A stretch of 39,308 nucleotides of DNA from a virus (taxonomy: Duplodnaviria; Heunggongvirae; Uroviricota; Caudoviricetes), in IMG/VR virus record IMGVR_UViG_2541047861_000010, positions 1 through 39,308 of that record; one strand, written 5' to 3'. A program made the translations under genes and the position numbers. The notes beneath the pieces were generated by a model that searched no databases, was not told the DNA's origin, and saw only the letters and a program-made list of their open reading frames with translations. Shown in pieces: positions 1 to 39,308 of the stretch (positions are counted from its first letter, which is position 1; the number at the start of each line of letters is the position of its first letter).

Positions 1-2109
1 TTACACCATACTGTTAACCTGGCCGGGTAATTCGCTAGCTGGAATACGAAAGGTATACCAGGCATAACGACAGCGTTTCCACAGGCTGGAGAAATGGAGA
101 TGATAAAGGAAATCTGCAATAATTTCGTTATCTGGATATAAAGACTCGGCAAAATGTGTCCAGCGCGCACTGAGTTTCATGTTAAACAGTTTTTCATCTT
201 CTTTGTTACCATACAGGCGCGACAAAGTAATCATTGCTTCGAGCGTACCTTTATTCGCTTCTTCTTGTACCTGTTGGAGGTGCAAATGAGCAAGTGAGAG
301 TTCTTTCACCTCAAAGATATTAAGTAAAAAAAGCCCCCATGCTTTTTCATGTCCAGCTTCATGAGCCAGAAATAAATTGTCAAGGAGATTTTTTTCATAA
401 ATAGCCCGTGTTTCTTTAGAAATTTCTTGTTTATTTAGTGCCTGGTAGCAGATAGCAATGCTAAAATAAATATTTTGTAGATCTTGTTGATGTTCGCTAT
501 AACCATAATTTTTTACCAGTGGATAAGATACCGAGCTATGGAAATTTAGGTCATCTTGAAGTATTTTAAGTGCCCGTCGAAAATACTCCAAAGCTGTAGA
601 TGGTTCATAAGGTAATTTTGTATTGTCTTCCTTATCCAAATATTCAAGAGCAACTAAATTTAATGCGGCAGGAATATTTCTTTGCTTACCAATTGTCGCA
701 AGCGGAATGAAATAATCAGAAAGGTCAAACCAACTCAAATCTTTTATTGCCGACCGCCAATTATGATTGTATTTAATGTCACTAGCTTTTTCCAGCCAAG
801 CATCGCCCTGCCCTTCATCTTTTTCAAAACCCAAAATACCCTCTCGCTGGAAAAACCCCCTATAAATAACAGGTGTAGCATAAGTTGTATTCTGTGAATT
901 TTGGCAGATAAAATTATATATCCAGAATGAATCTGGATAATAACTTAATGCAAATTTTATCGCGTACGCAGTGTAATAATTATTGAGCTTCATGTCTTCC
1001 ATCACCGCTCGCTGTATACAGCACCACAACTTATCGTGATCGTTCTGCTTGTTATAGCAGGCAAGTAACCACTCTAGGGCATTATGGCGACATTCCTGAA
1101 ATTGTGCGTACTGAGCAATATTCTCTGCTAAGTCGATTGCATATTGTTGCTCCTCGGGCGCAATGTCCTCAATGCTGACATCTCGGTAATCATCCCACCA
1201 AAGTAAGAGATCCATATAGTCATGTTCTTCGGTAGATAAGTGCTTACAGGTTACTGAATCCAGCAATTCGGAAATTTCTTTATGCGACCCTCCCCAGCGT
1301 GGCATTCGAAATGGTATATATTCAACAAAAGGATAAAAAGTGTGAGGAAAAATAGTCAGACAAACAGAAAGCCAATATTTTTGCCCACCATCATCATCAT
1401 ACTCAGGAAGTATATTGGGGCGAGGCAAAACGGGGCATATTGCATGCTCAAACGAAAGTCCGGAATACGCCATCAACGCTTCCACTTCTTGCGGGGAGCG
1501 GCGGTGATAATTTTTCAGTGCGATCATTAATGGTATTCCTGCGACACTATCACCGTTAAGGTGTGCCGCCAGCCAGGCTGGCTGACCAAATACTTTTGAG
1601 TTGGTGCTGGTAAGTAATGCAGCCATCCATTGTCGTGGGTCACAATCAATTGCTTTAAGTGTAGCGATGACCATTTGTTCATTACATGCACCAGCACAAA
1701 GCCACATTGCATGTGTGGTATCATTTGCCCAGCCATAACTGCGATATAACCATGCACGGTGATTCCAGTATTGTGCTTCGGCAAGCCAGGCATGTGTAGA
1801 ATGAGGTCTTGCTTGCTGCCAGGTTTTAATGAGTCTTAAACCTTCTGTTCCGGCATCAACTAGCGTGTTCATATCATAAAAATAGTTGCACATTTGGGTC
1901 CAGGATAAAAAATAGCGCTTTTCAGCCTGACGAGAAGTGAAACTCTCCTGTAATACCTGGTTATAAATTTCATCTAGTTCCTGATAACGTTTTTCTTGTA
2001 ACATATAAGGAATATTTGCGATTTGCCATTTTCTCTCAAGAGTATTAAGTGGCATTTTTTGGTCACACATCTTTTGCATTGCACTGAGTAAACGAGCATC
2101 CTGTTCCAT
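1..2109 (-). CDS. Hypothetical cytoplasmic protein, 702 aa, Trp/Tyr-rich; last gene of an AT-rich three-gene operon
   Basis: Full ORF 1-2148; start placed at internal ATG 2107-2109 (MEQDARLL) because AAGGA sits 6 nt upstream and this avoids overlap with the upstream gene. Stop codon is at window bases 1-3. No hydrophobic N-terminus. No family recognised from memory. Confidence 0.6.
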   Translation of the reverse strand: MEQDARLLSAMQKMCDQKMPLNTLERKWQIANIPYMLQEKRYQELDEIYNQVLQESFTSRQAEKRYFLSWTQMCNYFYDMNTLVDAGTEGLRLIKTWQQARPHSTHAWLAEAQYWNHRAWLYRSYGWANDTTHAMWLCAGACNEQMVIATLKAIDCDPRQWMAALLTSTNSKVFGQPAWLAAHLNGDSVAGIPLMIALKNYHRRSPQEVEALMAYSGLSFEHAICPVLPRPNILPEYDDDGGQKYWLSVCLTIFPHTFYPFVEYIPFRMPRWGGSHKEISELLDSVTCKHLSTEEHDYMDLLLWWDDYRDVSIEDIAPEEQQYAIDLAENIAQYAQFQECRHNALEWLLACYNKQNDHDKLWCCIQRAVMEDMKLNNYYTAYAIKFALSYYPDSFWIYNFICQNSQNTTYATPVIYRGFFQREGILGFEKDEGQGDAWLEKASDIKYNHNWRSAIKDLSWFDLSDYFIPLATIGKQRNIPAALNLVALEYLDKEDNTKLPYEPSTALEYFRRALKILQDDLNFHSSVSYPLVKNYGYSEHQQDLQNIYFSIAICYQALNKQEISKETRAIYEKNLLDNLFLAHEAGHEKAWGLFLLNIFEVKELSLAHLHLQQVQEEANKGTLEAMITLSRLYGNKEDEKLFNMKLSARWTHFAESLYPDNEIIADFLYHLHFSSLWKRCRYAWYTFRIPASELPGQVNSMV

Positions 2110-2119
2110 AGATATCCTT

Positions 2120-2836
2120 TTAATTAGGTTCAAAAATTTTAAATTCATTCCACGGCAATTTTTTCCAGTTACTGGATGGATCTTTCAACCATGCAGTGAC
2201 TTCCTTTAAATCACGGTTCGCAGTGGCGACGGGGGTATCGTATATCATTAACCATTTTTGTCGGGCGCGAACATAAGCACTGGCATAATCTTCCCATGAA
2301 GCGAAACAATCTTGTGCTCTTTGAGCATTCAGTAATAACACTATCCAGGCCTGGTTTTCATCGCACCAGCCTAAACCGGCGATGCAACGAGTTAAAAAAG
2401 CAGTGCGCATACAGTCAAACGCCAGCCCATCCAGAACCTGGCCTTGTGCTGCCAGTTGTTCGTAAAAATCATGTGGAGAATTACCAAGCCCTGTAGCCCA
2501 GCGCTGTAATATAACGCCAATTTGTTGACGGAAATCTTCGTTGCTTTGGTAAGTTTCTGTTCCTAGCTCTTGTTTAACCTGTAGTGCAAGTTGTTGACGC
2601 TTATCATCAGTCAACTTTAAATCTAACGTGAAGCCATTTACTGACAGTCCATTACGACGAGCAACTATATCACCAATTGCTAATGCCCACTTACGTCTCT
2701 TTGTTGCTCGTCTTTTGTCCTTGATTAGATCCTTTTCTTTTTCTTTAGCAATAAAAGCATCGATTTGTGGTTTGTTTTTTTTGTATCTATAGATAAAAAT
2801 AAATATTGCGACCAGGAGAACAATGATAAGACTCAT
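2120..2836 (-). CDS. Hypothetical membrane-anchored protein, 238 aa, single N-terminal hydrophobic helix
   Basis: ORF with ATG start; N-terminus SLIIVLLVAIFIFIYRY followed by KKNK looks like a signal anchor. Start overlaps stop of upstream gene (TAATG). Possibly DUF1266-like, unverified. Confidence 0.6.
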   Translation of the reverse strand: MSLIIVLLVAIFIFIYRYKKNKPQIDAFIAKEKEKDLIKDKRRATKRRKWALAIGDIVARRNGLSVNGFTLDLKLTDDKRQQLALQVKQELGTETYQSNEDFRQQIGVILQRWATGLGNSPHDFYEQLAAQGQVLDGLAFDCMRTAFLTRCIAGLGWCDENQAWIVLLLNAQRAQDCFASWEDYASAYVRARQKWLMIYDTPVATANRDLKEVTAWLKDPSSNWKKLPWNEFKIFEPN

Positions 2837-4050
2837 TATTTTTCAACCTCTGACAGGGGTAAGTAATGAGATGTCTGTAATGTCAAACTCTCTATCTCAA
2901 AGGAAATGTTGCTGATATTTTGACCTGCAAATTGCGGATGCCACTCAGCGCCAGGGAATAACATTTCCGCAGAAGTAGCAACTATAGGGTCAATAGCATT
3001 AAGATAATGTAACTTATCAGGTGCGCTGTGTAACAGTAACCACTGCAACTCCACTGAAGGATTTGTAAAATGTTCTAATAAATGAAAGTTATTATGTAGT
3101 ACGCTTAGTAAAAAACTGGTTTCGTATACTTCCGTTACATATTTCCACCCCTGATATTCAGGTGTATTTTCATAAACAATACCCATACCTTCACAATCAC
3201 TATGTCGAACTGCTTGTGGTGATAATAGTTGCAAAAGAGACAAAACATCGTCCGCATATTTTTTAACTGGATGACGATTTTGCTTACCTTTTATTTGATC
3301 AATTTCAAGTGAATCACCAACAACATTGAGAGCAATAGTAACATGAGGAATATTATTATTATCACGCAAACTGAATAACCGTAATTTATGTTGCTCAATT
3401 TGATTTGCATAATACTCACCATAACCACCGGTAAGATTTTTTCGATCATCAAACTGGCCTACGCAATGTTGCATATGCCATGATTCATAAGCCATTTCAC
3501 GACGAAGGTTCGAATGACTGGCATCAAACTCAACAATTTTTCCGTCTGGCACATCAAGTATTGACTTTACAGTATTTTGTTCACTCGGCTGCCACCCTTT
3601 CTCGCGTCGTTGAAGCATCTTTTCATGCTCTTCTTCACGCATTCTGAACGCAACGTAGCAGGTTATGCGCTGTAGTTTTGATTCCAGACGGGTACCACAT
3701 TTCCTGGAAAGAAATTCCACCAACTCCCGTTCTTTGGTTAATATTTGTTGATGATCGGTTTCGATATAATAAAGTGTCGCAGTTGATACTGAGGCAGTAT
3801 TAAACTTCGATACCAGCCATTCCGGGATTACATCATCATTTTTATTAAACAGTGAATATTCTGCAAGCGAGTTAATTTGTTGCACCATTGGAAAGTCACT
3901 AATTAGCCATCGATAAAAATGGTTGAGTAACCATTTTTGGATGGTCTCATTATCCTGGCGAAACAGACTTCTTTGCAAAATTGCTGTTTTTACTTCCGGG
4001 GCATTAATTACATCCCTTGCATTATAATTCTGGTGAATATTTCCAGTCAT
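2836..4050 (-). CDS. Hypothetical protein, 404 aa; first gene of AT-rich three-gene operon
   Basis: ORF with ATG start at 4048-4050. Hand-counted GC of a 60-nt sample in this island is about 32 percent, versus about 60 percent in a prophage structural-gene sample (23161-23220). No confident domain assignment. Confidence 0.6.
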   Translation of the reverse strand: MTGNIHQNYNARDVINAPEVKTAILQRSLFRQDNETIQKWLLNHFYRWLISDFPMVQQINSLAEYSLFNKNDDVIPEWLVSKFNTASVSTATLYYIETDHQQILTKERELVEFLSRKCGTRLESKLQRITCYVAFRMREEEHEKMLQRREKGWQPSEQNTVKSILDVPDGKIVEFDASHSNLRREMAYESWHMQHCVGQFDDRKNLTGGYGEYYANQIEQHKLRLFSLRDNNNIPHVTIALNVVGDSLEIDQIKGKQNRHPVKKYADDVLSLLQLLSPQAVRHSDCEGMGIVYENTPEYQGWKYVTEVYETSFLLSVLHNNFHLLEHFTNPSVELQWLLLHSAPDKLHYLNAIDPIVATSAEMLFPGAEWHPQFAGQNISNISFEIESLTLQTSHYLPLSEVEK

Positions 4051-4537: not shown

Positions 4538-5899
4538 ATGTTTAAACCGGAACTCCTTTCCCCGGCGGGAACGCTGAAAAATATGCGTTACGCTTTCGCT
4601 TATGGCGCAGATGCTGTTTATGCGGGCCAGCCGCGTTACTCCCTGCGTGTACGCAACAACGAATTCAACCACGAAAATCTTCAGCTCGGCATCAATGAAG
4701 CCCACGCGCTGGGGAAAAAGTTTTATGTCGTGGTCAACATTGCACCGCACAACGCCAAGCTGAAAACCTTTATCCGTGACCTGAAACCGGTGGTGGAAAT
4801 GGGGCCGGATGCGCTGATTATGTCCGATCCAGGGCTGATTATGCTGGTGCGTGAACACTTCCCGGAAATGCCAATCCACCTCTCGGTACAGGCTAACGCC
4901 GTAAACTGGGCGACGGTGAAATTCTGGCAGCAAATGGGTCTGACCCGCGTGATCCTCTCTCGCGAACTGTCACTGGAAGAGATTGAAGAGATCCGCAATC
5001 AGGTGCCGGATATGGAGATCGAAATCTTCGTTCACGGCGCGCTGTGCATGGCCTACTCCGGTCGCTGCCTGCTCTCTGGCTATATCAACAAGCGCGACCC
5101 GAACCAGGGCACCTGCACCAACGCCTGCCGCTGGGAGTACAATGTCCAGGAAGGGAAAGAAGATGACGTCGGCAACATCGTACACAAGTACGAGCCGATT
5201 CCGGTGCAAAATGTTGAGCCGACGCTGGGTATCGGCGCGCCAACCGACAAAGTGTTTATGATCGAAGAAGCCCAGCGTCCGGGCGAGTATATGACCGCGT
5301 TTGAAGATGAGCACGGCACTTACATCATGAACTCGAAAGATCTGCGCGCCATCGCCCATGTTGAACGCCTGACCAAAATGGGCGTGCATTCGCTGAAAAT
5401 CGAAGGCCGTACCAAATCTTTCTACTATTGCGCACGCACCGCGCAGGTTTACCGTAAAGCTATCGATGACGCCGCTGCGGGCAAACCGTTCGATACCAGC
5501 CTGCTGGAAACGCTGGAAGGTCTGGCGCATCGTGGCTATACCGAAGGTTTCCTGCGTCGTCATACCCACGACGATTATCAGAACTACGAATACGGTTATT
5601 CGGTTTCTGACCGCCAGCAGTTTGTTGGTGAGTTTACCGGTGAGCGCAAGGGGGAGCTCGCGGCGGTAGCGGTGAAAAATAAATTCTCCGTTGGCGACAG
5701 CCTTGAGCTGATGACGCCGCAAGGCAACATTAACTTTACCCTTGAGCATATGGAAAACGCCAAAGGTGAAGCGATGCCGGTCGCACCAGGCGATGGTTAT
5801 ACTGTGTGGCTCCCGGTGCCGCAGGATCTTGAGCTAAATTACGCGCTGCTGATGCGTAATTTCTCCGGGGAAACCACGCGTAACCCCCACGGTAAGTGA
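4538..5899 (+). CDS. yegQ: Peptidase U32-family protein YegQ (tRNA hydroxylation protein TrhP)
   Basis: 453-aa translation beginning MFKPELLSPAGTLKNMRYAFAYGADAVYAGQPRYSLRVRNNEF matches my recollection of E. coli YegQ in length and sequence; followed by cyaR as in E. coli K-12. Confidence 0.9.
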   Translation: MFKPELLSPAGTLKNMRYAFAYGADAVYAGQPRYSLRVRNNEFNHENLQLGINEAHALGKKFYVVVNIAPHNAKLKTFIRDLKPVVEMGPDALIMSDPGLIMLVREHFPEMPIHLSVQANAVNWATVKFWQQMGLTRVILSRELSLEEIEEIRNQVPDMEIEIFVHGALCMAYSGRCLLSGYINKRDPNQGTCTNACRWEYNVQEGKEDDVGNIVHKYEPIPVQNVEPTLGIGAPTDKVFMIEEAQRPGEYMTAFEDEHGTYIMNSKDLRAIAHVERLTKMGVHSLKIEGRTKSFYYCARTAQVYRKAIDDAAAGKPFDTSLLETLEGLAHRGYTEGFLRRHTHDDYQNYEYGYSVSDRQQFVGEFTGERKGELAAVAVKNKFSVGDSLELMTPQGNINFTLEHMENAKGEAMPVAPGDGYTVWLPVPQDLELNYALLMRNFSGETTRNPHGK

Positions 5900-5934
5900 T
5901 TAATTTCGATTATTTTTCCCGGATGGAAAATTCT

Positions 5935-5983
5935 TAGAAACCGATCACATACAGCTGCATTTATTAAGGTTATCATCCGTTTC
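5935..5983 (+). promoter_or_regulatory. Putative cyaR promoter region (candidate -10 TATCAT at 5971-5976; possible CRP half-site GATCACA upstream)
   Basis: Position immediately upstream of the cyaR 5' end; cyaR is known to be CRP-dependent. Motif match is by eye and weak. Confidence 0.35.
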
Positions 5984-6070
5984 GCTGAAAAACATAACCC
6001 ATAAAATGCTAGCTGTACCAGGAACCACCTCCTTAGCCTGTGTAATCTCCCTTACACGGGCTTATTTTTT
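5984..6070 (+). ncRNA. cyaR: Small regulatory RNA CyaR (RyeE), Hfq-dependent, with intrinsic terminator
   Basis: Sequence GCTGAAAAACATAACCCATAAAATGCTAGCTGTACCAGGAACCACCTCCTTAGCCTGTGTAATCTCCCTTACACGGGCTTATTTTTT matches recalled E. coli cyaR; ends in a hairpin (CCCTTACACGGG) plus U-tract. Confidence 0.85.
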
Positions 6071-6071
6071 A
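6044..6071. repeat. Prophage attachment-site core, ogr-proximal copy (28-bp direct repeat AATCTCCCTTACACGGGCTTATTTTTTA)
   Basis: Identical 28-mer recurs at 38636-38663. It contains the reverse complement of the 27-bp P2 att core as I recall it (AAAAAATAAGCCCGTGTAAGGGAGATT) and overlaps the cyaR terminator. Confidence 0.85.
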
Positions 6072-6134
6072 CGCGTAATACAATGAAATAAAAGGATTTA
6101 TTTCTGGTCACGTCCACACATTGACCACATCGAC

Positions 6135-6158
6135 AAAAAAGCCCCTCGACTGAGGGGC
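6135..6158 (-). terminator. Rho-independent terminator downstream of ogr
   Basis: Hairpin GCCCCTC-GACT-GAGGGGC with a T6 tract on the minus strand (A6 at 6135-6140 on plus). Confidence 0.6.
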
Positions 6159-6171
6159 TTCCTGTTTGTAA

Positions 6172-6390
6172 TTACATCCACATAATTTGCTGCCCTGACG
6201 GCAACGGGTGCGGCCTTACGGCGTGGACTTCTCCCGGCTTCACGATGTATCGCTGTACCGACTCATAAGTGATGAACGTGGCGCTGCAATTCACGTTCTG
6301 GCACTGGTGATAACGCTCTTTTGTCGTGTCAGTGATATAGCGACTTGTACGCGCATGTGCGGCATGCTGGCATAAAGGACAATGAAACAT
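6172..6390 (-). CDS. ogr: Late-gene transcription activator Ogr (zinc-finger)
   Basis: 72-aa product MFHCPLCQHAAHARTSRYITDTTKERYHQCQNVNCSATF... with a four-Cys motif, matching P2 Ogr; start at internal ATG with GGAAGAGG upstream. Confidence 0.9.
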   Translation of the reverse strand: MFHCPLCQHAAHARTSRYITDTTKERYHQCQNVNCSATFITYESVQRYIVKPGEVHAVRPHPLPSGQQIMWM

Positions 6391-13433: not shown

Positions 13434-16214
13434 TTACACCTGTGCGACGTTATACCATGTGCCATTGATGTATTTTTGTATCGGTCTGAAGATGGCTTCA
13501 TCATCGCCATCAACTTCACCAATAATTCTTAATCCGGTAAGTGTGTGTCCGGCCATCTCATAACGCCCGCCACGCGCCATCAATTGAACAACACGTGTTC
13601 CCAGGCGAACATCCATCACATAACGCCCGTCGAAATTACCGTAGTTACTTGGCACAACTTGTCCGGCAACAGTTAATCCATGGCCAATAGTGACTCCACC
13701 AGTGGAATTCTGAATATAGAATGGCCTTAAACTACTCCATCCCCCCATACTGTCACCGGAGTTGGTCAACATGAAATGGGTGAAATTACCATCATTTCGG
13801 ATAAAGAATCCATAGTTCCCACATACGATGCGATAACCGTTTGCTGACCTTGAAACAACTTCCCCATCAACAGTTAAACCGCCTGTAATAGTGCCACCGG
13901 ATATCGGTAAAGCACCAACATCACCAGCGGATGGTTTATGTGCTGTCGTATAAAGCTGTGCCCATCCAGACCACTGAGCGTCATCTGTATCCCGCCTTGA
14001 ACGAATATATGCTGGTGCATGAGCACCGCTGGTTCCACTCCAGCCGATAAGTAACTCACCTTCTCCGGTTGCGGATACCCCCGTAAGATGAAGCACATTG
14101 CCATAGGCATAAGGGTAGCCATTGTTATATGCCTCATACATCTGAATACCAGGCACCCCCTTCTCACTCCCGCTTAATGCAGCAACGCGATTCCTGGATA
14201 CCAGCGTATTAATATTGATATTGCCAGAACCATCAAATTTCACGCCGTTAATTGTCCTTGCCGTTTTCAGCTTTGTAGCTGTAGCCGCATTGCCGGACAG
14301 TTCGCCTGAAAGACCGGCGCTGAAGGTTTGTTTCGCCGCCCATGTCTGAGCTTCGTCGATAATTGGCACACGTCTTGTCGTGATCGTGCGGCTTCCCGGA
14401 TTTCCTGAAATACGCACCATAAAAAAGCGGTAGTTGGCTTTACTTACAGTGCTGCGCCATACATGCATTGAGCGCCCCGTACCGGAATCATCACTCGGAC
14501 CAACTGCGATGTTTATCAGGTTGCCATCAATGACGCCCCAGTCCATACCGTCGGGAATGTGGGTCATGTTATCAAGCCGAACGGTTATCAGACTGCCCGG
14601 CACAAAGTCGTAGGTCTGCCAGTCCAGGCTGGAGAGTTTTGCCACAGCGCCACCGATGCCCAGATTCAGAGGCAACGAAAAGGAGTTATATACTTCTCGC
14701 CATTCGGTCCATTTGCTCCCGGCGTAGACGCGCTCAAAAGTGCGTCCCTGTGTGGTTTCTGATTTCCCTGTGGTTGTGTAACGCTGCCAGACAGACACAC
14801 CATCAAAACGTCTGATTACTTCCAGTATCCCAAGTAGTGTCGCGCCAACGGTGTCCAGCATCGGACCGTTTGTTGCCTTTCCTGTAACACTGTAAATACC
14901 GGGGTCGGTTAGAACATTTAAATCACCCTCGTAATAACGACTCTCTGACTGATGACCGATTCTTAACCACGGTTCCCACTGCGGATTTGATGCATCCCAG
15001 CTTGCCGCAAGGCAGCGGACATACATATTTCCACGGCGAGTGGTATAACGTTGCGTTCTTCCATAATTCCCGCCTTCGAGGATCTCAAGCGTCCCCTGAG
15101 CAAAGCCGCCTTCCTCTGGATAATTGCGTTCATATGAAGCTATAGCCGAGCTACTGTTACGCCATAAACCAAGATGCTCGGCGGCTCCAAGCGTATTCAG
15201 GTCTATAGTCGTACTCAAAGGGCGGGTAGCAGATTGAGTGTGACGCCATACGCCCCACGGACCATCAGTGCCATTCCACTTATTGGCGAGTTTACGCATG
15301 TATACATTGCCGTCTCTCGTGGTAAAGCGTTGAGTACCTGCAAAATTGCCGGCAGCAAAAACCTCAAGCACACCGACAGCATTATCTTCCGGGAAATTTT
15401 TCTCCAGTGTTGCGTTAGTTGAGGTAGCTTTAGACCAGATCCCCAGATAAGCCTTAACGGGACCAAATGTATTCAGGTCGGCATCAACCGGCATTTCGCC
15501 ATTGTTTTTCATAAACGTCAGGCTGGTAACGCCAACATTGTCCAGAAAAGCTGATTTATCCTGGATATCTGCACCGTTCTGATTTTTCGCCAGACGTGAA
15601 TTTGCGTTGTCATTTGCTGCCTTGACCGCTTTTGGCGTTGCCGCCAATGACTCACTGGTGCTGTTTGTTGCACTGCTTAACTGAGTAAAACCTTTTTCTG
15701 TCAGCGTGGCGTCAGGATGGCGGCGGGACTGCTCATGCTCTGCGATTTTGTCATCGACATAATCCTGAGTCGCCATCACCGTGCTGGCATCAATACTCAG
15801 TTCAACGGACGCCACGTTGCTGAGAATAATAACCATGCGACAGGTCTGCGCACGCCCGGAGCCTTCAGCCAGTTCTGGCTTATAGCTTTCTGCCATGTTG
15901 GATACCGCAATCAGTGTTCCGGCATCGTCATACAGACCAAGCTCACGCATCCAGAAGCCGCCCACTTCGGGCGGTACAACCAGTTCAGCCACGATATAGT
16001 TTTTATTCTTATTATCCACGCTGACTTTATTCAGAGCGTGACGCCAGACCTCATGCACCAGTTTCGTCTGACCGGCATCCGGCACCGGCAATTTGCCATT
16101 ACCATCACCCACGGCCATTGCAGACAGGTTTACTTTTTTCCCGCCGGGGACAGTGGCGGCTGCCAGCTTTGCGGCTCCGGCAGTAGTGATAACGGTTTTA
16201 AATTTCGTGCTCAT
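13434..16214 (-). CDS. H: Tail fibre protein gpH (926 aa) with P2-like N-terminus and divergent longer C-terminal receptor-binding region
   Basis: N-terminus [25 protein letters not shown]... resembles P2 H (about 669 aa as I recall); C-terminus ends ...[17 protein letters not shown], a tail-fibre tip motif. Confidence 0.85.
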
Positions 16215-18729: not shown

Positions 18730-19473
18730 ATGGATAAATATCAAATCTGGGAAAAACAAAAAGACACCATCGCCCATAAAGAATATTTAAAAATTTCCGA
18801 CACCAATTTACTTGGACATATACACATTGCCAATTATGAGGTGATTCAAAGTGAATTAAGCAAATTCAACTCTCCTGAAATTGTACTCCACTACTCACTT
18901 AATAGAAATGAATTAAAAAAAGAGAGCATAAATATATCAAGACATTTTCTCAACTATATCTCCTCAGCATTATCACTTAGAGATTCAACTCGAAATCTAC
19001 ATAAAATTAATGTGTTAAATATTGATAACATTACCAATAAATCCAGAGAAATCATCAATGAAGAATTTTTAAAAAATCCAATCATCAAATTAATGGAGGA
19101 TTTAAGAAACATCCTAACCCATCAAAAAATGATCTCCCCATTAATATCATCATTTATGCACCTCCAGAAAAAAATAAACATACACGGATTTGCATTTAAG
19201 ATTGAAACCATACTGGAGAATGACCGACTTTCTGGTAAATCAAAAGAATACCTGAAGTCAACAGAACAAAAAAATTTATTCATCTTGCCGATAATAGAGG
19301 AATACCAATACACAACTCTTAAATACCAGCACTGGCTTTTAGCTTGTATCCACAATGCTCATCAAAATACATACCCAGAATACTGGGAAGCAAGAAAAAA
19401 CATAATGGACGTCTGGGGTGGAGATATCCAACTAATACCTGAAGAGAGTGCCCTCACTTATTTGACCAGATAA
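18730..19473 (+). CDS. Hypothetical protein (247 aa), AT-rich moron at the P2 orf30 position between V and S
   Basis: ATG at 18730 with AAGGAG 10 nt upstream; hand-counted GC of a 60-nt sample is about 22 percent; opposite strand to all flanking tail genes. No recognisable domain. Confidence 0.7.
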   Translation: MDKYQIWEKQKDTIAHKEYLKISDTNLLGHIHIANYEVIQSELSKFNSPEIVLHYSLNRNELKKESINISRHFLNYISSALSLRDSTRNLHKINVLNIDNITNKSREIINEEFLKNPIIKLMEDLRNILTHQKMISPLISSFMHLQKKINIHGFAFKIETILENDRLSGKSKEYLKSTEQKNLFILPIIEEYQYTTLKYQHWLLACIHNAHQNTYPEYWEARKNIMDVWGGDIQLIPEESALTYLTR

Positions 19474-29182: not shown

Positions 29183-30250
29183 TCATTTCTTAGCTTTCAC
29201 AACCGGATGCGCGCGATCATGTCCACCGCCACGATGCTTAGAAAATATAACCTTTTCATTAGTAAAAGGTTTTTGGCCATAGACACTATCATAGTGGAAA
29301 AAGACGTTCGGAAGATGAGGCACACGGATGAATCCATACTTCACTCTAGTATCACCGATGACCCCAAAAACCCTTGTACTTACTGGGTAGCATAGTTCAC
29401 CACAACGCATCACTAATTCATCTGCTGTTGGGCGTTCAGAAGGTTCCAATTTTAAACAATCTTCTATAAGTTTAATTATTTCATTTGCCAATGGCGCATA
29501 CTGTCTATTTGAAAATATAAAGTCAGGGTAAGGAACATGCGTGCCAGAAAGTATTTTTGGTATAGCCATATAACCAATACCAAAAGGGTATTTTCCAGTA
29601 AGAATCCTGAACATCATCGCACCCAATGCCCAAATATCTGTAGGTTTCGAAACCTTACCTTGACTCTGTATGATTTCCGGTGCCATATATGGCAAAGCCC
29701 CGATAGCCGTTTGCGAAGAACTAATTGAATCTTGACCATTTCTTGCAGCCTCATCAATTTCATCTCCGGCCATCTTTGAAATGCCGAAATCCGTAATTTT
29801 TATCTCTGTAGCATTGATACCACCGCCTACCATTATATTTGAAGGTTTGAGGTCCCGGTGTATGACGTCAACATGATGCGAAGCAGACAGAGCTTTAGCT
29901 AAATTATGAAATATTTTAGCAGTTAAATATGGATCAACACTTGAATAAGTGTCTAAAATAGCCTTATCCAAGTCAACTCCATCAATAAATTCCTCCGTTA
30001 AAAACTCTCTACCCTCATCATCAATGAAGTAATCTAAGGTTTTAGCCACATTAGGATGATTAACCCTTGATGCTAATATTGCACTTCTATGAAACCTTTT
30101 TTCAGCAGATTTATTTTTGGGAGTTTTGAGAGCCACATGCCTCGAGAGAATATTATCCATTGCCAAATAAACTTTTTGCATACCGCCTTCACCAATCTCC
30201 CTCAATATTGTATATCTGCTAACTTGAATTCCTGGAGTCAGATTTATCAT
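29183..30250 (-). CDS. Hanks-type Ser/Thr protein kinase with C-terminal cold-shock-like (OB-fold) domain (355 aa)
   Basis: Kinase motifs present: G-loop GEGGMQKV, VALK lysine, HRDLKPSN, DFG, APE. C-terminal 60 aa (VFGVIGDTRVKYGFIRVPHLPNVFFHYDSVYG...EKVIF) aligns by eye to the CspA pattern. AT-rich; start overlaps upstream stop (ATGA). Confidence 0.85.
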   Translation of the reverse strand: MINLTPGIQVSRYTILREIGEGGMQKVYLAMDNILSRHVALKTPKNKSAEKRFHRSAILASRVNHPNVAKTLDYFIDDEGREFLTEEFIDGVDLDKAILDTYSSVDPYLTAKIFHNLAKALSASHHVDVIHRDLKPSNIMVGGGINATEIKITDFGISKMAGDEIDEAARNGQDSISSSQTAIGALPYMAPEIIQSQGKVSKPTDIWALGAMMFRILTGKYPFGIGYMAIPKILSGTHVPYPDFIFSNRQYAPLANEIIKLIEDCLKLEPSERPTADELVMRCGELCYPVSTRVFGVIGDTRVKYGFIRVPHLPNVFFHYDSVYGQKPFTNEKVIFSKHRGGGHDRAHPVVKAKK

Positions 30251-31311
30251 AACACCACCTCCGGATGGGAAAGGTCAAATGTAATGAAGACCCGCTCTTT
30301 TCTTGGCCGAGAAGTCTCTCCCAGAATAATAACACATGAATCAGGCAAAATATTATATTGCTTTGCAGCTATATTATTCACATACACCTCACCACTTAAA
30401 CTCGATATATAAAACTCTGAACCAGAATATTTCACCTCAATAGTCCCGACCCCTGAATTATTAAAAGCCGCAGATTTATTTGTTGAAGAAATGATGACGG
30501 GTGGAGTGTTATCAGAGATTAACAATGCTCTATGAGAGTTGTAGAGAACGAATTTTTTTAGAGTCTGACACACATCAGCCATATCAGGTCTCTCACAAGG
30601 ATTCGTATCTAAACATTGGAAAAGCAATTCTTTTACCTGAGTTGGTAACTGTATATTAGAATTATCAAAAGGATTAGACAATAATTTTTTGGGTAAAACT
30701 CTCATTTCCGGTGGTAGTGGGGTCTTAGCCAAAAACATGGCCGTTACAGCAAAAGCATATGTATCTATGGATTTTGTAAACGCTACTTGATGTAAAAATA
30801 ATTCAGGTGCAGCATATGTTGGGGTTCCTTTAAAACCTATTGTATTAGCTTCATCAACATTTCTAGATAGTCCGAAGTCATAAATCTTCACTACTCCCTC
30901 AGAATCAATTTTCATGTTCCCAGGCTTGATATCCCTATGAATAATATCATGAGAATGTATCTCAGAAATACCCGAAGATATTTGCCACAAAATTTTAATC
31001 AGATCTTCAGAATTTAATATGCGATCCTCTACTTCCAATAATGAAGGTCCGTCAACATACTCTTCGACTATAGCAATTCCTTTACCTTGATAATTAATAA
31101 CATCATAAAGCTCTACTACATGTTTTGATCTTAATTTCATCAATGCTGATAACTCATCCATCATTCGAGGAGAATCATCAGGATTACTTATGGACTTTAT
31201 AGCGACAAATCTTTCGAGGTGAGTATCCAAGCATTTGATCACGCAACCAAATCCTCCCGAAGCCTCTTCTTCAGTCCTCTTATATCTTGCAGGGAGAGTA
31301 AAATTAGTCAT
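30247..31311 (-). CDS. Hanks-type Ser/Thr protein kinase with C-terminal FHA-like domain (354 aa)
   Basis: Kinase motifs present: GGFGCV, VAIK, HRDIKPGN, DFG, APE. C-terminal segment (SSLSGEVYVNNIAAKQYNILPDSCVIILGE) resembles the FHA signature. RBS AAGGAG 7 nt upstream. Confidence 0.85.
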   Translation of the reverse strand: MTNFTLPARYKRTEEEASGGFGCVIKCLDTHLERFVAIKSISNPDDSPRMMDELSALMKLRSKHVVELYDVINYQGKGIAIVEEYVDGPSLLEVEDRILNSEDLIKILWQISSGISEIHSHDIIHRDIKPGNMKIDSEGVVKIYDFGLSRNVDEANTIGFKGTPTYAAPELFLHQVAFTKSIDTYAFAVTAMFLAKTPLPPEMRVLPKKLLSNPFDNSNIQLPTQVKELLFQCLDTNPCERPDMADVCQTLKKFVLYNSHRALLISDNTPPVIISSTNKSAAFNNSGVGTIEVKYSGSEFYISSLSGEVYVNNIAAKQYNILPDSCVIILGETSRPRKERVFITFDLSHPEVVL

Positions 31312-32470
31312 CTTTATCTCCTTTAGTGGAGTTTTTCTCAGAGAATGAAATATCTAACTGTGAAATATTATCTAACTTATCATTATTGTTAGCTTCGATA
31401 ACATTCCTTCCCTCATCACTCTTTATATTACTATTTTTTTTCTTTGTACGTGATTTCCTTTTCGATACATTTTTTTTGTTAGAAATTTCATTACTGCATT
31501 CTAACTCAGTAACTTTTCTATCAATAACATTTTCAACCGTAGCTGAGTTAGGTATATCTAACGGCGCAGGTTGCACGCTAATTACTTTCATCTCACCAAA
31601 AGGATCCCATAAATTAATTACATCCCCAGATGATACATCCAAAGCACTTAGGATGTTCGAAATCTCAACTACCGCAATCGACGCATTATCAAATCCACCA
31701 AACCAACTAGCTAGATCTATAACTCTTTTAGCGAACACTCCAGTATTATTGGAGTGAGCATATAATTTTCTCAAATTATTACTGTCAATGGTATGAGCAC
31801 CATCTGAAGTTAATGCAACCACCCCAGGTACGAGCCGAATATCGTGAAAATGTATCTCAAGAACACCATCAAGACCTATAAACTGTACTAACTCGCCACC
31901 TAACCTAGAATCAATAACACCTGAGTCACTACCAAGATGCTCATTATATTTCTTTGCCAATACAGCTAATGTATCATCCTCACTAATTTGTTTTATGTGT
32001 TCAGCATTAATGGAATATATGCGACTATCCCCGACATTTATTGCTGTAATGTTATCGGAGTCATCTACAGCTAAGGCAGATAACGTAGCCCCACCGTTCC
32101 CATTATATACTTTCAAAACCGATTCATTTGCTTTTAAAACGGCGATTTCAAGACATTGTCTAATTGGCAAGCCTGAGTGTTTAATTATCTCGGTAAAAAA
32201 AGATGATACGGTCAATGAAGCAGCATTCGCTCCCCCTTCCATCCCCCCCATACCATCTGCTAAAGCGATGACAATCATGTCCTTATTCTTACTAAAAGGA
32301 CGAAATTTTAATACAGCTACCCGGTCTTGGTTCTCTTTCCTAACTAAACCTATGTCTGTAGCAATAGCTGCAGGTAGCATAGATACTCTTCGTACAGATG
32401 AAGAGATATTTTTTCTATGCAGCCAAGCGTGTATCTGTTCATGAAGGATCTCGTAAGAGTCTCGACTCAC
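31304..32470 (-). CDS. PP2C-family Ser/Thr protein phosphatase with Lys-rich disordered C-terminal tail (388 aa)
   Basis: PP2C motifs ALADGMGG, VGDSR and TSDG read in the translation. GTG start with GAGGAGG 4 nt upstream; 3' end overlaps the downstream kinase start by 8 nt (ATGACTAA). Confidence 0.8.
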   Translation of the reverse strand: MSRDSYEILHEQIHAWLHRKNISSSVRRVSMLPAAIATDIGLVRKENQDRVAVLKFRPFSKNKDMIVIALADGMGGMEGGANAASLTVSSFFTEIIKHSGLPIRQCLEIAVLKANESVLKVYNGNGGATLSALAVDDSDNITAINVGDSRIYSINAEHIKQISEDDTLAVLAKKYNEHLGSDSGVIDSRLGGELVQFIGLDGVLEIHFHDIRLVPGVVALTSDGAHTIDSNNLRKLYAHSNNTGVFAKRVIDLASWFGGFDNASIAVVEISNILSALDVSSGDVINLWDPFGEMKVISVQPAPLDIPNSATVENVIDRKVTELECSNEISNKKNVSKRKSRTKKKNSNIKSDEGRNVIEANNNDKLDNISQLDISFSEKNSTKGDKDD

Positions 32471-36730: not shown

Positions 36731-37006
36731 TTAACGTGGTTCACCGAGACCTAACCACATCAACCAGCCGTCACGAATCTCTTTAGGACGGCTTTCATAA
36801 GCCAGTTTTAGTCCGTTATTCCATGCCGGAAGGTATACCCAATATTCACCAGCACGCCCCGATACTGACTGAGGGTCAGTAATCTCAATAACTGGTAATT
36901 TCCCTTTCTCAATCATGCCCCTTACAGCTCTTGGAGTTTTACCAATGAGTTTTGCAAACTCCTGATAAGGCACGGCATCAGTCACGCTTACAAGCTGTCT
37001 ATTCAT
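36731..37006 (-). CDS. cox: Cox excisionase / early-operon regulator (91 aa)
   Basis: 91 aa; divergent from C across the switch region; P2 Cox length and position. Confidence 0.9.
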   Translation of the reverse strand: MNRQLVSVTDAVPYQEFAKLIGKTPRAVRGMIEKGKLPVIEITDPQSVSGRAGEYWVYLPAWNNGLKLAYESRPKEIRDGWLMWLGLGEPR

Positions 37007-37127: not shown

Positions 37128-37427
37128 ATGTCAATAGACGTTTCGGAGAAGTTGAAGCTAATCCGTGAATCTGAAAGGTTAAACCGTAAAGAATTCAGTG
37201 AATTAACTGGTGTAGCCTACAGCTCACTTTCGAGCTATGAGAGCCGGTCAAAAAACGCTGGAGTTGAAGCCATAATGAAGGTCTTACAACATCCCAGATT
37301 TACTAAATATACTTTGTGGTTCATGACTGATCAGGTAGCTCCAGAAGCCGGGCAAATTGCGCCCGCTCTCGCACACTTTGGGCAAAACGAAACAACGTCG
37401 CCCCACTCCGGTCAAAAGACTGGTTAA
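37128..37427 (+). CDS. C: Immunity repressor C (99 aa)
   Basis: Start at MSIDVSEKLKLIRESERL with GGAG 8 nt upstream; the C-terminal half is close to P2 C as I recall it (FTKYTLWFMT...QIAPALAHFGQNETTSPHSGQKTG). Confidence 0.85.
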   Translation: MSIDVSEKLKLIRESERLNRKEFSELTGVAYSSLSSYESRSKNAGVEAIMKVLQHPRFTKYTLWFMTDQVAPEAGQIAPALAHFGQNETTSPHSGQKTG

Positions 37428-37542: not shown

Positions 37543-38556
37543 ATGGCAATCAAAAAACTCGATGATGGTCGATATGAAGTGGACATCCGCCCTACTGGAC
37601 GTAACGGAAAACGCATCCGTAGGAAGTTTGATAAGAAAAGCGAAGCTGTCGCTTTCGAAAAATACACGTTGTACAACCACCACAATAAAGAATGGCTATC
37701 AAAACCAACAGACAAACGACGTCTGTCGGAACTGACACAGATCTGGTGGGATTTAAAGGGTAAACACGAAGAGCATGGGAAATCTAATCTTGGAAAAATT
37801 GAAATCTTCACAAAAATAACGAATGACCCATGCGCATTTCAAATCACGAAATCCCTTATCAGCCAGTACTGCGCCACCCGAAGAAGTCAGGGTATTAAAC
37901 CTTCGAGTATCAATCGTGATTTAACATGTATTAGCGGCATGTTTACAGCCCTGATTGAAGCGGAGTTATTCTTTGGTGAGCACCCTATCAGAGGGACAAA
38001 GAGGCTTAAGGAGGAAAAACCAGAAACAGGCTATCTCACACAGGAAGAAATTGCCTTACTGCTTGCAGCACTTGACGGCGACAACAAAAAGATTGCGATT
38101 CTTTGCCTGAGTACAGGAGCACGTTGGGGAGAAGCAGCTCGTTTGAAAGCAGAAAATATCATCCATAACCGCGTCACGTTTGTTAAAACGAAAACAAACA
38201 AACCACGCACCGTCCCGATCTCAGAGGCTGTTGCCAAAATGATCGCGGATAACAAACGAGGTTTTTTATTCCCTGATGCTGATTACCCTCGCTTCAGACG
38301 AACAATGAAAGCAATAAAACCGGATTTGCCAACGGGGCAAGCCACACATGCACTAAGGCACAGCTTTGCCACTCATTTCATGATTAATGGAGGAAGTATT
38401 ATCACGCTACAACGGATACTAGGTCACACGCGGATTGAGCAAACTATGGTTTACGCTCATTTTGCGCCAGAGTACCTTCAGGACGCCATTTCTCTTAATC
38501 CGCTAAGAGGTGGTACTGAAGCCGAGAGTGTCCACACAGTGTCCACAGTAGAGTAA
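37543..38556 (+). CDS. int: Tyrosine integrase (337 aa)
   Basis: 337 aa with the tyrosine-recombinase C-terminal signature (HALRHSFATHF...LGH...YAH); GGAGGG RBS; adjacent to the att core. Confidence 0.95.
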   Translation: MAIKKLDDGRYEVDIRPTGRNGKRIRRKFDKKSEAVAFEKYTLYNHHNKEWLSKPTDKRRLSELTQIWWDLKGKHEEHGKSNLGKIEIFTKITNDPCAFQITKSLISQYCATRRSQGIKPSSINRDLTCISGMFTALIEAELFFGEHPIRGTKRLKEEKPETGYLTQEEIALLLAALDGDNKKIAILCLSTGARWGEAARLKAENIIHNRVTFVKTKTNKPRTVPISEAVAKMIADNKRGFLFPDADYPRFRRTMKAIKPDLPTGQATHALRHSFATHFMINGGSIITLQRILGHTRIEQTMVYAHFAPEYLQDAISLNPLRGGTEAESVHTVSTVE

Positions 38557-38635
38557 CGTTTAAGGGCTTTCAGTGGTAATTTATGCCGCTCAAACCCGCA
38601 TTGTACCGTTGAAAGCCCCTACTGGTGACACCCTA

Positions 38636-38663
38636 AATCTCCCTTACACGGGCTTATTTTTTA
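38636..38663. repeat. Prophage attachment-site core, int-proximal copy (28-bp direct repeat)
   Basis: AATCTCCCTTACACGGGCTTATTTTTTA identical to 6044-6071. Confidence 0.85.
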
Positions 38664-38990
38664 TGCATAAGCCCTATCCCTGGTCACCGTCTTCCATTGA
38701 CCACATCGATAGAATCCTCCTTCATAGCACGATGCTTTTCACTTATCGACATCGTGCTCGCACAGGTTCCGGTTACGCACAGCCAGAACGCGCATGTTTG
38801 ACGCTTACCAAAAAATGAACCTAAAGCATTGGAACATTTTTGACATCATTTTCTGATGGCTGCATAAAATAAAAATTCTGCTTTAGTTTCATCTATCTGT
38901 TTGTCATTATTACTCACATTCAATAATGGTGTTGAAGAATATCCCATCACAGATAAAATAAATATGTGCATGGTAGTCTTGAATCTATTC

Positions 38991-39308
38991 TCACTCTCCA
39001 CATTTGAATGTCAGACGAGCGACGCCATGTAATCCTGCACCTTCTGTCTTCAGGTCAACTATCTGCATTTTTTTGCCCTGAGTAACACAGAAATGAACTG
39101 CATCATTTTTTACTATATTTTCTGCACCAGATATTCTACCCCTGGCTAAAGAAGCTTCGGCTTCGGTGTAGTATTGGTTATCGAGTTTACGCTGAATATT
39201 ACTTTTATATGCAAGACCAAATTTACCGATACTTGTCTCATCATTATGTACAGCACACCCAGACATAAGAAAAACACTAATTAATGATATAGCAGCTATC
39301 TTTTTCAT
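38991..39308 (-). CDS. yegR: Lipoprotein YegR (105 aa)
   Basis: MKKIAAISLISVFLMSGCAVHNDETSIGKF... has a signal peptide with lipobox; matches recalled E. coli YegR in length and sequence. Start codon is at the window edge. Confidence 0.8.
   Translation of the reverse strand: MKKIAAISLISVFLMSGCAVHNDETSIGKFGLAYKSNIQRKLDNQYYTEAEASLARGRISGAENIVKNDAVHFCVTQGKKMQIVDLKTEGAGLHGVARLTFKCGE

Follow-up and report, generated by a model that had tools for sequence, protein, structure and literature searches.

A P2-like prophage at the locI site overlapping the terminator of the small-RNA gene cyaR of Escherichia coli

In the stretch of DNA analysed here, a window of 39,308 nt in total, a 28-bp sequence occurs both at the 3′ end of the small-RNA gene cyaR and just beyond a phage integrase gene. 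This arrangement raises the question of whether the two copies mark the crossover by which a prophage entered the locus, and of what that event has left of the small-RNA gene. The original prediction held that they do mark it, and that the phage supplies the 3′ end of the gene it has entered.

The cyaR gene and the repeat in its terminator

The cyaR gene (ryeE) is present in full length at 5984–6070 on the plus strand. The Rfam family CyaR_RyeE (RF00112) matches positions 5982–6067 (+) with 100.7 bits against a gathering score of 47 (E-value 3.8e-19), the match covers model positions 1–85 of 85, and no other Rfam family is matched in the window. Likewise, no tRNA or tmRNA gene that might serve as an alternative integration target is found in the window. 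The gene is identical to its counterpart at the K-12 locus and lies, as is conserved, immediately downstream of yegQ/trhP, a 453-aa reading frame at 4538–5899 (+) in the left host flank, which is named trhP/yegQ in E. coli FY26. Putative CRP half-sites, TTAGA-N6-TCACA with 8 of 10 matches to TGTGA-N6-TCACA, can be read at 5934–5949 (+), some 42 nt before cyaR begins. Further upstream of yegQ, positions 1–4050 (minus strand) harbor a low-GC (36–45%) block of three genes encoding DUF4034, DUF1266 and PcfJ-domain proteins; this strain-variable island stands where K-12 has baeR–yegP, and PADLOC gives no match within it.

The intrinsic terminator of cyaR extends over 6035–6070 (+) and consists, according to the terminator scan, of an 11-bp stem (6035–6045 paired with 6052–6062), a 6-nt loop and the U-tract. 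Its fold has a free energy of −15.9 kcal/mol (z −6.06), and none of 200 shuffled sequences is as stable. As the left repeat copy begins at position 6044, it contributes the final two bases of the 5′ stem and everything that follows, from the loop through the whole 3′ stem to the U-tract, while the remainder of the 5′ stem, 6035–6043, is host-only DNA outside the repeat. The scan, the fold and the full-length Rfam match thus agree with the predicted location of the left copy inside the cyaR terminator. The right copy, examined as a possible terminator, for instance of the integrase gene, lacks the partner 5′ stem and forms no stable hairpin (−3.5 kcal/mol, z +0.81).

Throughout the 39,308-nt window the 28-mer AATCTCCCTTACACGGGCTTATTTTTTA is present in two exact copies, both on the plus strand, at 6044–6071 and at 38636–38663, precisely where they had been placed beforehand. 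No further copy with up to two mismatches is found in the window, and none of 100 dinucleotide-preserving shuffles contains a chance match. Exact identity between the two junctions ends at both edges of the 28-mer. An independent repeat search recovered the same pair and extended it to 35 nt at 94% identity; in that search no other or longer direct repeat brackets the element, so that the 28-mer is the sole exact long repeat spanning it.

Of the 28 repeated bases, 27 correspond to the published core of the P2 attachment site, AAAAAATAAGCCCGTGTAAGGGAGATT, whose exact reverse complement is held by both copies, namely at 6044–6070 on the cyaR side (attL) and at 38636–38662 on the integrase side (attR). 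The same 27 nt constitute the attP feature of the P2 GenBank record AF063097, and attP and locI, the site preferred in E. coli C, are stated to share an identical core (PMC3931495); in K-12, locI is occupied by a P2 remnant (PMC3931495). Compared with P2 the identity is one base longer here, 28 instead of 27 nt, because the T-run is followed by an A in phage and host alike.

The prophage and its reconstructed parental sites

The 32.56 kb between the repeats (6072–38635) constitute a P2-like (Peduovirus) prophage with the full gene set from D to int. A 24-kb query (6072–30000) is 95–96.5% identical to Peduovirus genomes over 88–89% of its length. The gene order is that of P2, with ogr, D, U, T, E, FII, FI, G, H, I, J, W, V, S, R and the lysis genes followed by X, L, M, N, O, P, Q, a cargo region, A, small genes, cox, C and int. 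Gene assignments draw on Pfam matches and on the annotation of E. coli FY26 (NZ_CP101741.1, 210295–249602), which differs from the window by a single base at position 110.

At the cyaR end the first gene is ogr (6172–6390, minus strand), encoding the 72-aa late-gene activator (PF04606, 1.1e-21; designated ogrK by PGAP). At the opposite end are found cox (36731–37006, minus strand; PF10743, 1.7e-42), encoding the excision directionality factor and Pc repressor, the gene of the 99-aa helix-turn-helix immunity repressor C (37128–37427, plus strand; PF01381), positioned as in P2, and int (37543–38556, plus strand), encoding a P2-type tyrosine integrase of 337 aa (PF24624 and PF00589). The 3′ end of int falls within a 98.6% match to P2, and the gene stops 79 nt short of the right repeat copy, which is accordingly located just past int, as anticipated. 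The right host flank follows with yegR (38991–39308, minus strand). The genes int, cox, C and ogr all read as intact, and the prophage is apparently complete.

Between the portal gene Q and the replication gene A, an accessory hotspot in P2, a low-GC (34–40%) cargo of three genes is inserted at 29183–32470 (minus strand), comprising two Ser/Thr protein kinases (Pfam Pkinase) and a PP2C-family phosphatase. The best PADLOC matches are mad6 and PD-T4-6, the corresponding PHROGs are phrog_2361 and phrog_17277, and this kinase-kinase-phosphatase cargo is a candidate for a role in anti-phage defence. Another low-GC (33%) island separates the baseplate gene V from gene S at 18730–19473 (+), opposed to the late genes and at the position of P2 orf30; its 247-aa reading frame matches phrog_12680 (unknown function) over the full length, and neither Pfam nor PADLOC gives a match to it. 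The tail-fibre gene H is a single uninterrupted reading frame of 926 aa at 13434–16214 (minus strand), whereas in the RefSeq (PGAP) annotation of FY26 a short CDS and two pseudogene fragments take its place; the mosaic nature of the tail fibre has probably misled the annotation here.

If the repeat is the crossover, both parental sites should exist outside this lysogen. The excised attP was built in silico from the int-side and ogr-side flanks of the core, and the empty attB from the two host flanks, and both are found in nature; this comparison is a computational counterpart of the PCRs across the junctions and the excised circle that accompanied the original prediction. The predicted attP is contiguous and gap-free in P2 (AF063097; 98.6% over 628 nt) and is also contiguous in nine other phage records with up to 99.5% identity. 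The predicted attB is uninterrupted and 100% identical in E. coli ZJ3920, where yegQ is directly followed by yegR, and 882 of the 5,426 complete E. coli genomes match this query with a coverage of at least 80%. A four-way alignment of attL, attR, the P2 attP and the empty attB depicts a reciprocal-recombinant pattern with the switch exactly at the core: attL equals the left part of attB joined to the right part of attP, and attR the left part of attP joined to the right part of attB. Together with the published core and the two parental sites, this alignment identifies the 28-mer pair as the crossover that had been proposed. Among the same 5,426 complete genomes, the junction of cyaR, core and ogr is present with at least 80% coverage in 1,129 (about 21%) and the junction of int, core and host in 811 (about 15%).

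Direct repeats flanking an element would also be left by transposition, and the 28-bp repeat could then be the target-site duplication of a Mu-like phage or transposon instead of a shared attachment core. Such a duplication is made from host DNA only, yet free phages hold the core between int and ogr, and its presence in the attP of P2 refutes this origin. Furthermore, the genes of the element include those of a tyrosine integrase and of Cox and none for a transposase, known target duplications are much shorter than 28 bp, and a single site is used across the 811–1,129 genomes counted above. The probability of a transpositional origin is therefore vanishingly small.

The repeat, the integrity of cyaR, the identity of the prophage and the existence of both parental sites are matters of direct observation, and from them it follows almost certainly that a P2-type Peduovirus has been integrated by Int/IHF site-specific recombination at locI, the primary P2 site of E. 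coli; no contradicting evidence was encountered. The locI core corresponds to the distal half of the cyaR terminator, i.e. the loop, the 3′ stem and the U-tract, and Int and IHF, to judge from P2 biology and the record annotation, would recombine attP with locI inside the shared core. Since attP holds the same 27–28 nt, strand exchange within the core would leave two copies. At attL, the host 5′ stem would be joined to a core whose distal part is phage-derived, restoring cyaR base for base, and attR would retain an orphan half-terminator downstream of int. The original statement that the cyaR 3′ end comes from the phage thus holds in principle, with the restriction that the 5′ stem at 6035–6043 is host DNA and that, within the core, the sequence distal to the strand exchange alone is physically of phage origin.

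Attachment-site arms and the surroundings of cyaR

Because the match to P2 is free of insertions and deletions, the binding sites annotated in AF063097 can be transferred one-to-one to the window. On the P arm, next to cyaR, an IHF site is thereby predicted at 6069–6102 and a region of Int arm-type sites at 6106–6133, including CGTCCACA (6111–6118) and TGACCACA (6122–6129). On the P′ arm, the predicted Int arm-type sites span 38522–38548 with TGTCCACA occurring twice (38529–38536 and 38540–38547), followed by the predicted Cox-binding region of attP/attR at 38546–38619. The arm repeats on both arms coincide with protein_bind features of AF063097 and fit the consensus tgTGGaCa given for arm sites of P2-type integrases (PMC3448106). 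For excision, Int, IHF and Cox would have to act at the arm sites kept at attL and attR, and the prophage may still be capable of it.

The Rho-independent terminator of ogr and the F operon, as annotated in the P2 record, maps to 6138–6161 (minus strand; scan match 6139–6160), i.e. between ogr and cyaR and 66 nt from the cyaR end. The scan also rates this hairpin as terminator-like on the plus strand. The two genes are indeed convergent, as had been noted, with cyaR on the plus strand and ogr on the minus strand. Transcription from ogr and the late operon towards cyaR would be halted by the phage terminator 66 nt away, and the ogr terminator thus probably insulates cyaR from it.

In this setting the insertion might damage cyaR function, either by altered termination or by interference from convergent ogr and late-gene transcription. 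The orientation of ogr is in keeping with this, and a reporter assay has found 41% readthrough at the CyaR terminator (PMC9765468), a leakiness by which the downstream context could matter. On the other hand, up to and including the U-tract the transcribed sequence is the same as that of the empty site and of K-12, which bears out the claim that the cyaR sequence is intact in the lysogen, and ogr possesses a terminator of its own. The ogr and late genes of P2 are silent in the lysogen, as is established in P2 biology. Moreover, K-12 itself has the same junction of cyaR, core, P arm and ogrK (97.5% over 988 nt) and expresses active CyaR. CyaR was discovered and characterised in K-12, so that its function in exactly such a downstream context is already established. 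Damage to cyaR is accordingly very improbable. Given integration at locI by a phage that carries the host's 27–28 nt, the cyaR transcript should be unchanged through the U-tract, and the gene would continue to be expressed as a functional CRP-dependent small RNA. The original remark that the downstream context of cyaR is now phage DNA is true, yet this context is not unusual, being shared by K-12 and about 21% of the genomes.

In K-12 a truncated D gene comes after this junction. At the right end of the ogr-D′ remnant, as seen in E. coli K-12 GM4792 (locus 1500–1560), the truncated D is joined directly to what is left of the attR core, TACACGGGCTTATTTTTTT, so that the remnant must have arisen by a deletion with one end inside D and the other inside the core.

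Past attR, the host flank contains at 38675–38714 a sequence which resembles the P arm of the phage (6099–6138) with 75% identity over 40 nt. The two share an exact 15-mer, CATTGACCACATCGA, and an 8-mer, CTGGTCAC, offset by a 16-nt deletion in the host copy relative to the phage, and their local alignment score of 38 compares with 14.0 ± 2.0 for shuffled sequences (maximum 23). One predicted Int arm-type site is retained in this fossil P arm. The flank bearing it is also present at the empty site of ZJ3920 and is matched by 5,412 of 5,426 complete E. coli genomes; the fossil itself is found in most “empty” sites of E. coli and also in Shigella. One cryptic-clade Escherichia harbors a longer relic including the IHF region (score 50), while in the flanks of Kluyvera, Enterobacter and E. 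ruysiae nothing scores above shuffles.

The fossil also bears on how the present prophage was acquired, since a resident P2 remnant, either the fossil P arm or an ogr-D′ segment as in K-12, could have served RecA-dependent homologous recombination, with the core repeat inherited and not produced by a fresh Int crossover. The fossil beyond attR and the K-12-type remnants known at this locus would be compatible with such an entry. Against it, the identity of attL and attR breaks cleanly at the core, and about 40 nt with 75% identity and a 16-nt deletion make a poor substrate for homologous recombination. In addition, ZJ3920 possesses an intact empty site together with the same fossil, so that the junctions are as Int recombination at the core predicts. 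An origin by RecA is hence most unlikely, and Int/IHF recombination at locI is retained as the explanation.

As a degenerate P arm flanks the core in almost every E. coli and Shigella genome, the supposedly “empty” locI of E. coli looks like an attL, and this suggests that it is the fossil attL of a much older P2-like prophage. If so, the flank of the cyaR terminator would have been phage-derived since before E. coli diversified, and the relic arm site might contribute to the strong preference of P2 for locI. One may further speculate that CRP-driven readthrough of CyaR, running antisense into ogr, could couple carbon status to the control of P2 late genes; the bidirectional ogr terminator may in turn block such readthrough. 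Taken as a linked pair, a fossil attL at locI and CRP-driven antisense readthrough into ogr, this proposal is rather unlikely to hold.

Occurrence and relation to known integration systems

What is described here is locI, the classical attachment site of P2, in its overlap with the terminator of cyaR, an arrangement both already known and common in E. coli. For the biology of P2 or CyaR it holds nothing new, as the site, the core sequence and the overlap with cyaR have all been published; it does provide a clean case of a temperate phage landing in the 3′ hairpin of a small RNA without harming the gene. For the annotation of the record it means that attL and attR should be marked, cyaR kept intact, and a complete-looking prophage with candidate defence cargo noted.

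Literature on CyaR includes De Lay and Gottesman 2009, cited in PMC3333887. PMC3603311, citing Wassarman 2001, names ryeE of E. coli as an earlier known phage target, and “cyaR RNA” is given as the insertion site of Wphi2 (P2) in E. coli W, of ogr-D′ in K-12 and of P2*B in E. coli B (PMC3032704).

Beyond E. coli, the exact 27-mer adjoins cyaR in Shigella, E. ruysiae, Kluyvera species and Enterobacter hormaechei, and P2-like prophages occupy the cyaR site in E. ruysiae and Kluyvera intermedia. The record CP178308.1, labelled E. coli ECDA1023, contains a cyaR gene and an adjoining P2-like arm that look Kluyvera-like when compared with Kluyvera intermedia; it may be a mislabelled record or hold a transferred segment. 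In the E. coli type strain ATCC 11775 the cyaR site is occupied by another, different P2-like prophage (1853205–1888820 of its record). In its cargo, an AAA ATPase gene is split by an IS21-family insertion (ISEc12), and additional cargo genes, for a DUF5677 protein and a recombinase fragment, are located between the tail-fibre and sheath genes.

The closest known system is P2 itself at locI of E. coli C, together with ogr-D′ of K-12 (Barreiro and Haggard-Ljungquist 1992, as summarised in PMC3931495), which has the same 27-nt core flanked by int and ogr. The arm, IHF and Cox sites of the P2/locI system are the same as well, as is the position between yegQ/cyaR and yegR. The present prophage differs in being a relative, about 96% identical in the late genes and with different cargo genes, and not P2 itself. 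Wphi2 in E. coli W and P2*B in E. coli B share insertion site and phage type, as judged from their listing in PMC3032704, and differ from it in the strain and in the accessory genes. Comparable in their mode of integration are the phages which enter genes at their 3′ ends and duplicate that end, such as phage 186 in tRNA-Ile and Fels-2/SopEPhi in ssrA, as well as integration at ryeB in Salmonella (PMC3448106, PMC3603311). In phages and islands targeting tRNA, tmRNA or small-RNA genes, as in the case reported here, the attachment core overlaps a 3′ hairpin and the phage copy restores the gene. In contrast to the tRNA and tmRNA targets, the element entered here is not a tRNA-like T-arm or acceptor stem; it is the terminator of an Hfq-dependent small RNA, of whose hairpin one half is contained in the core.
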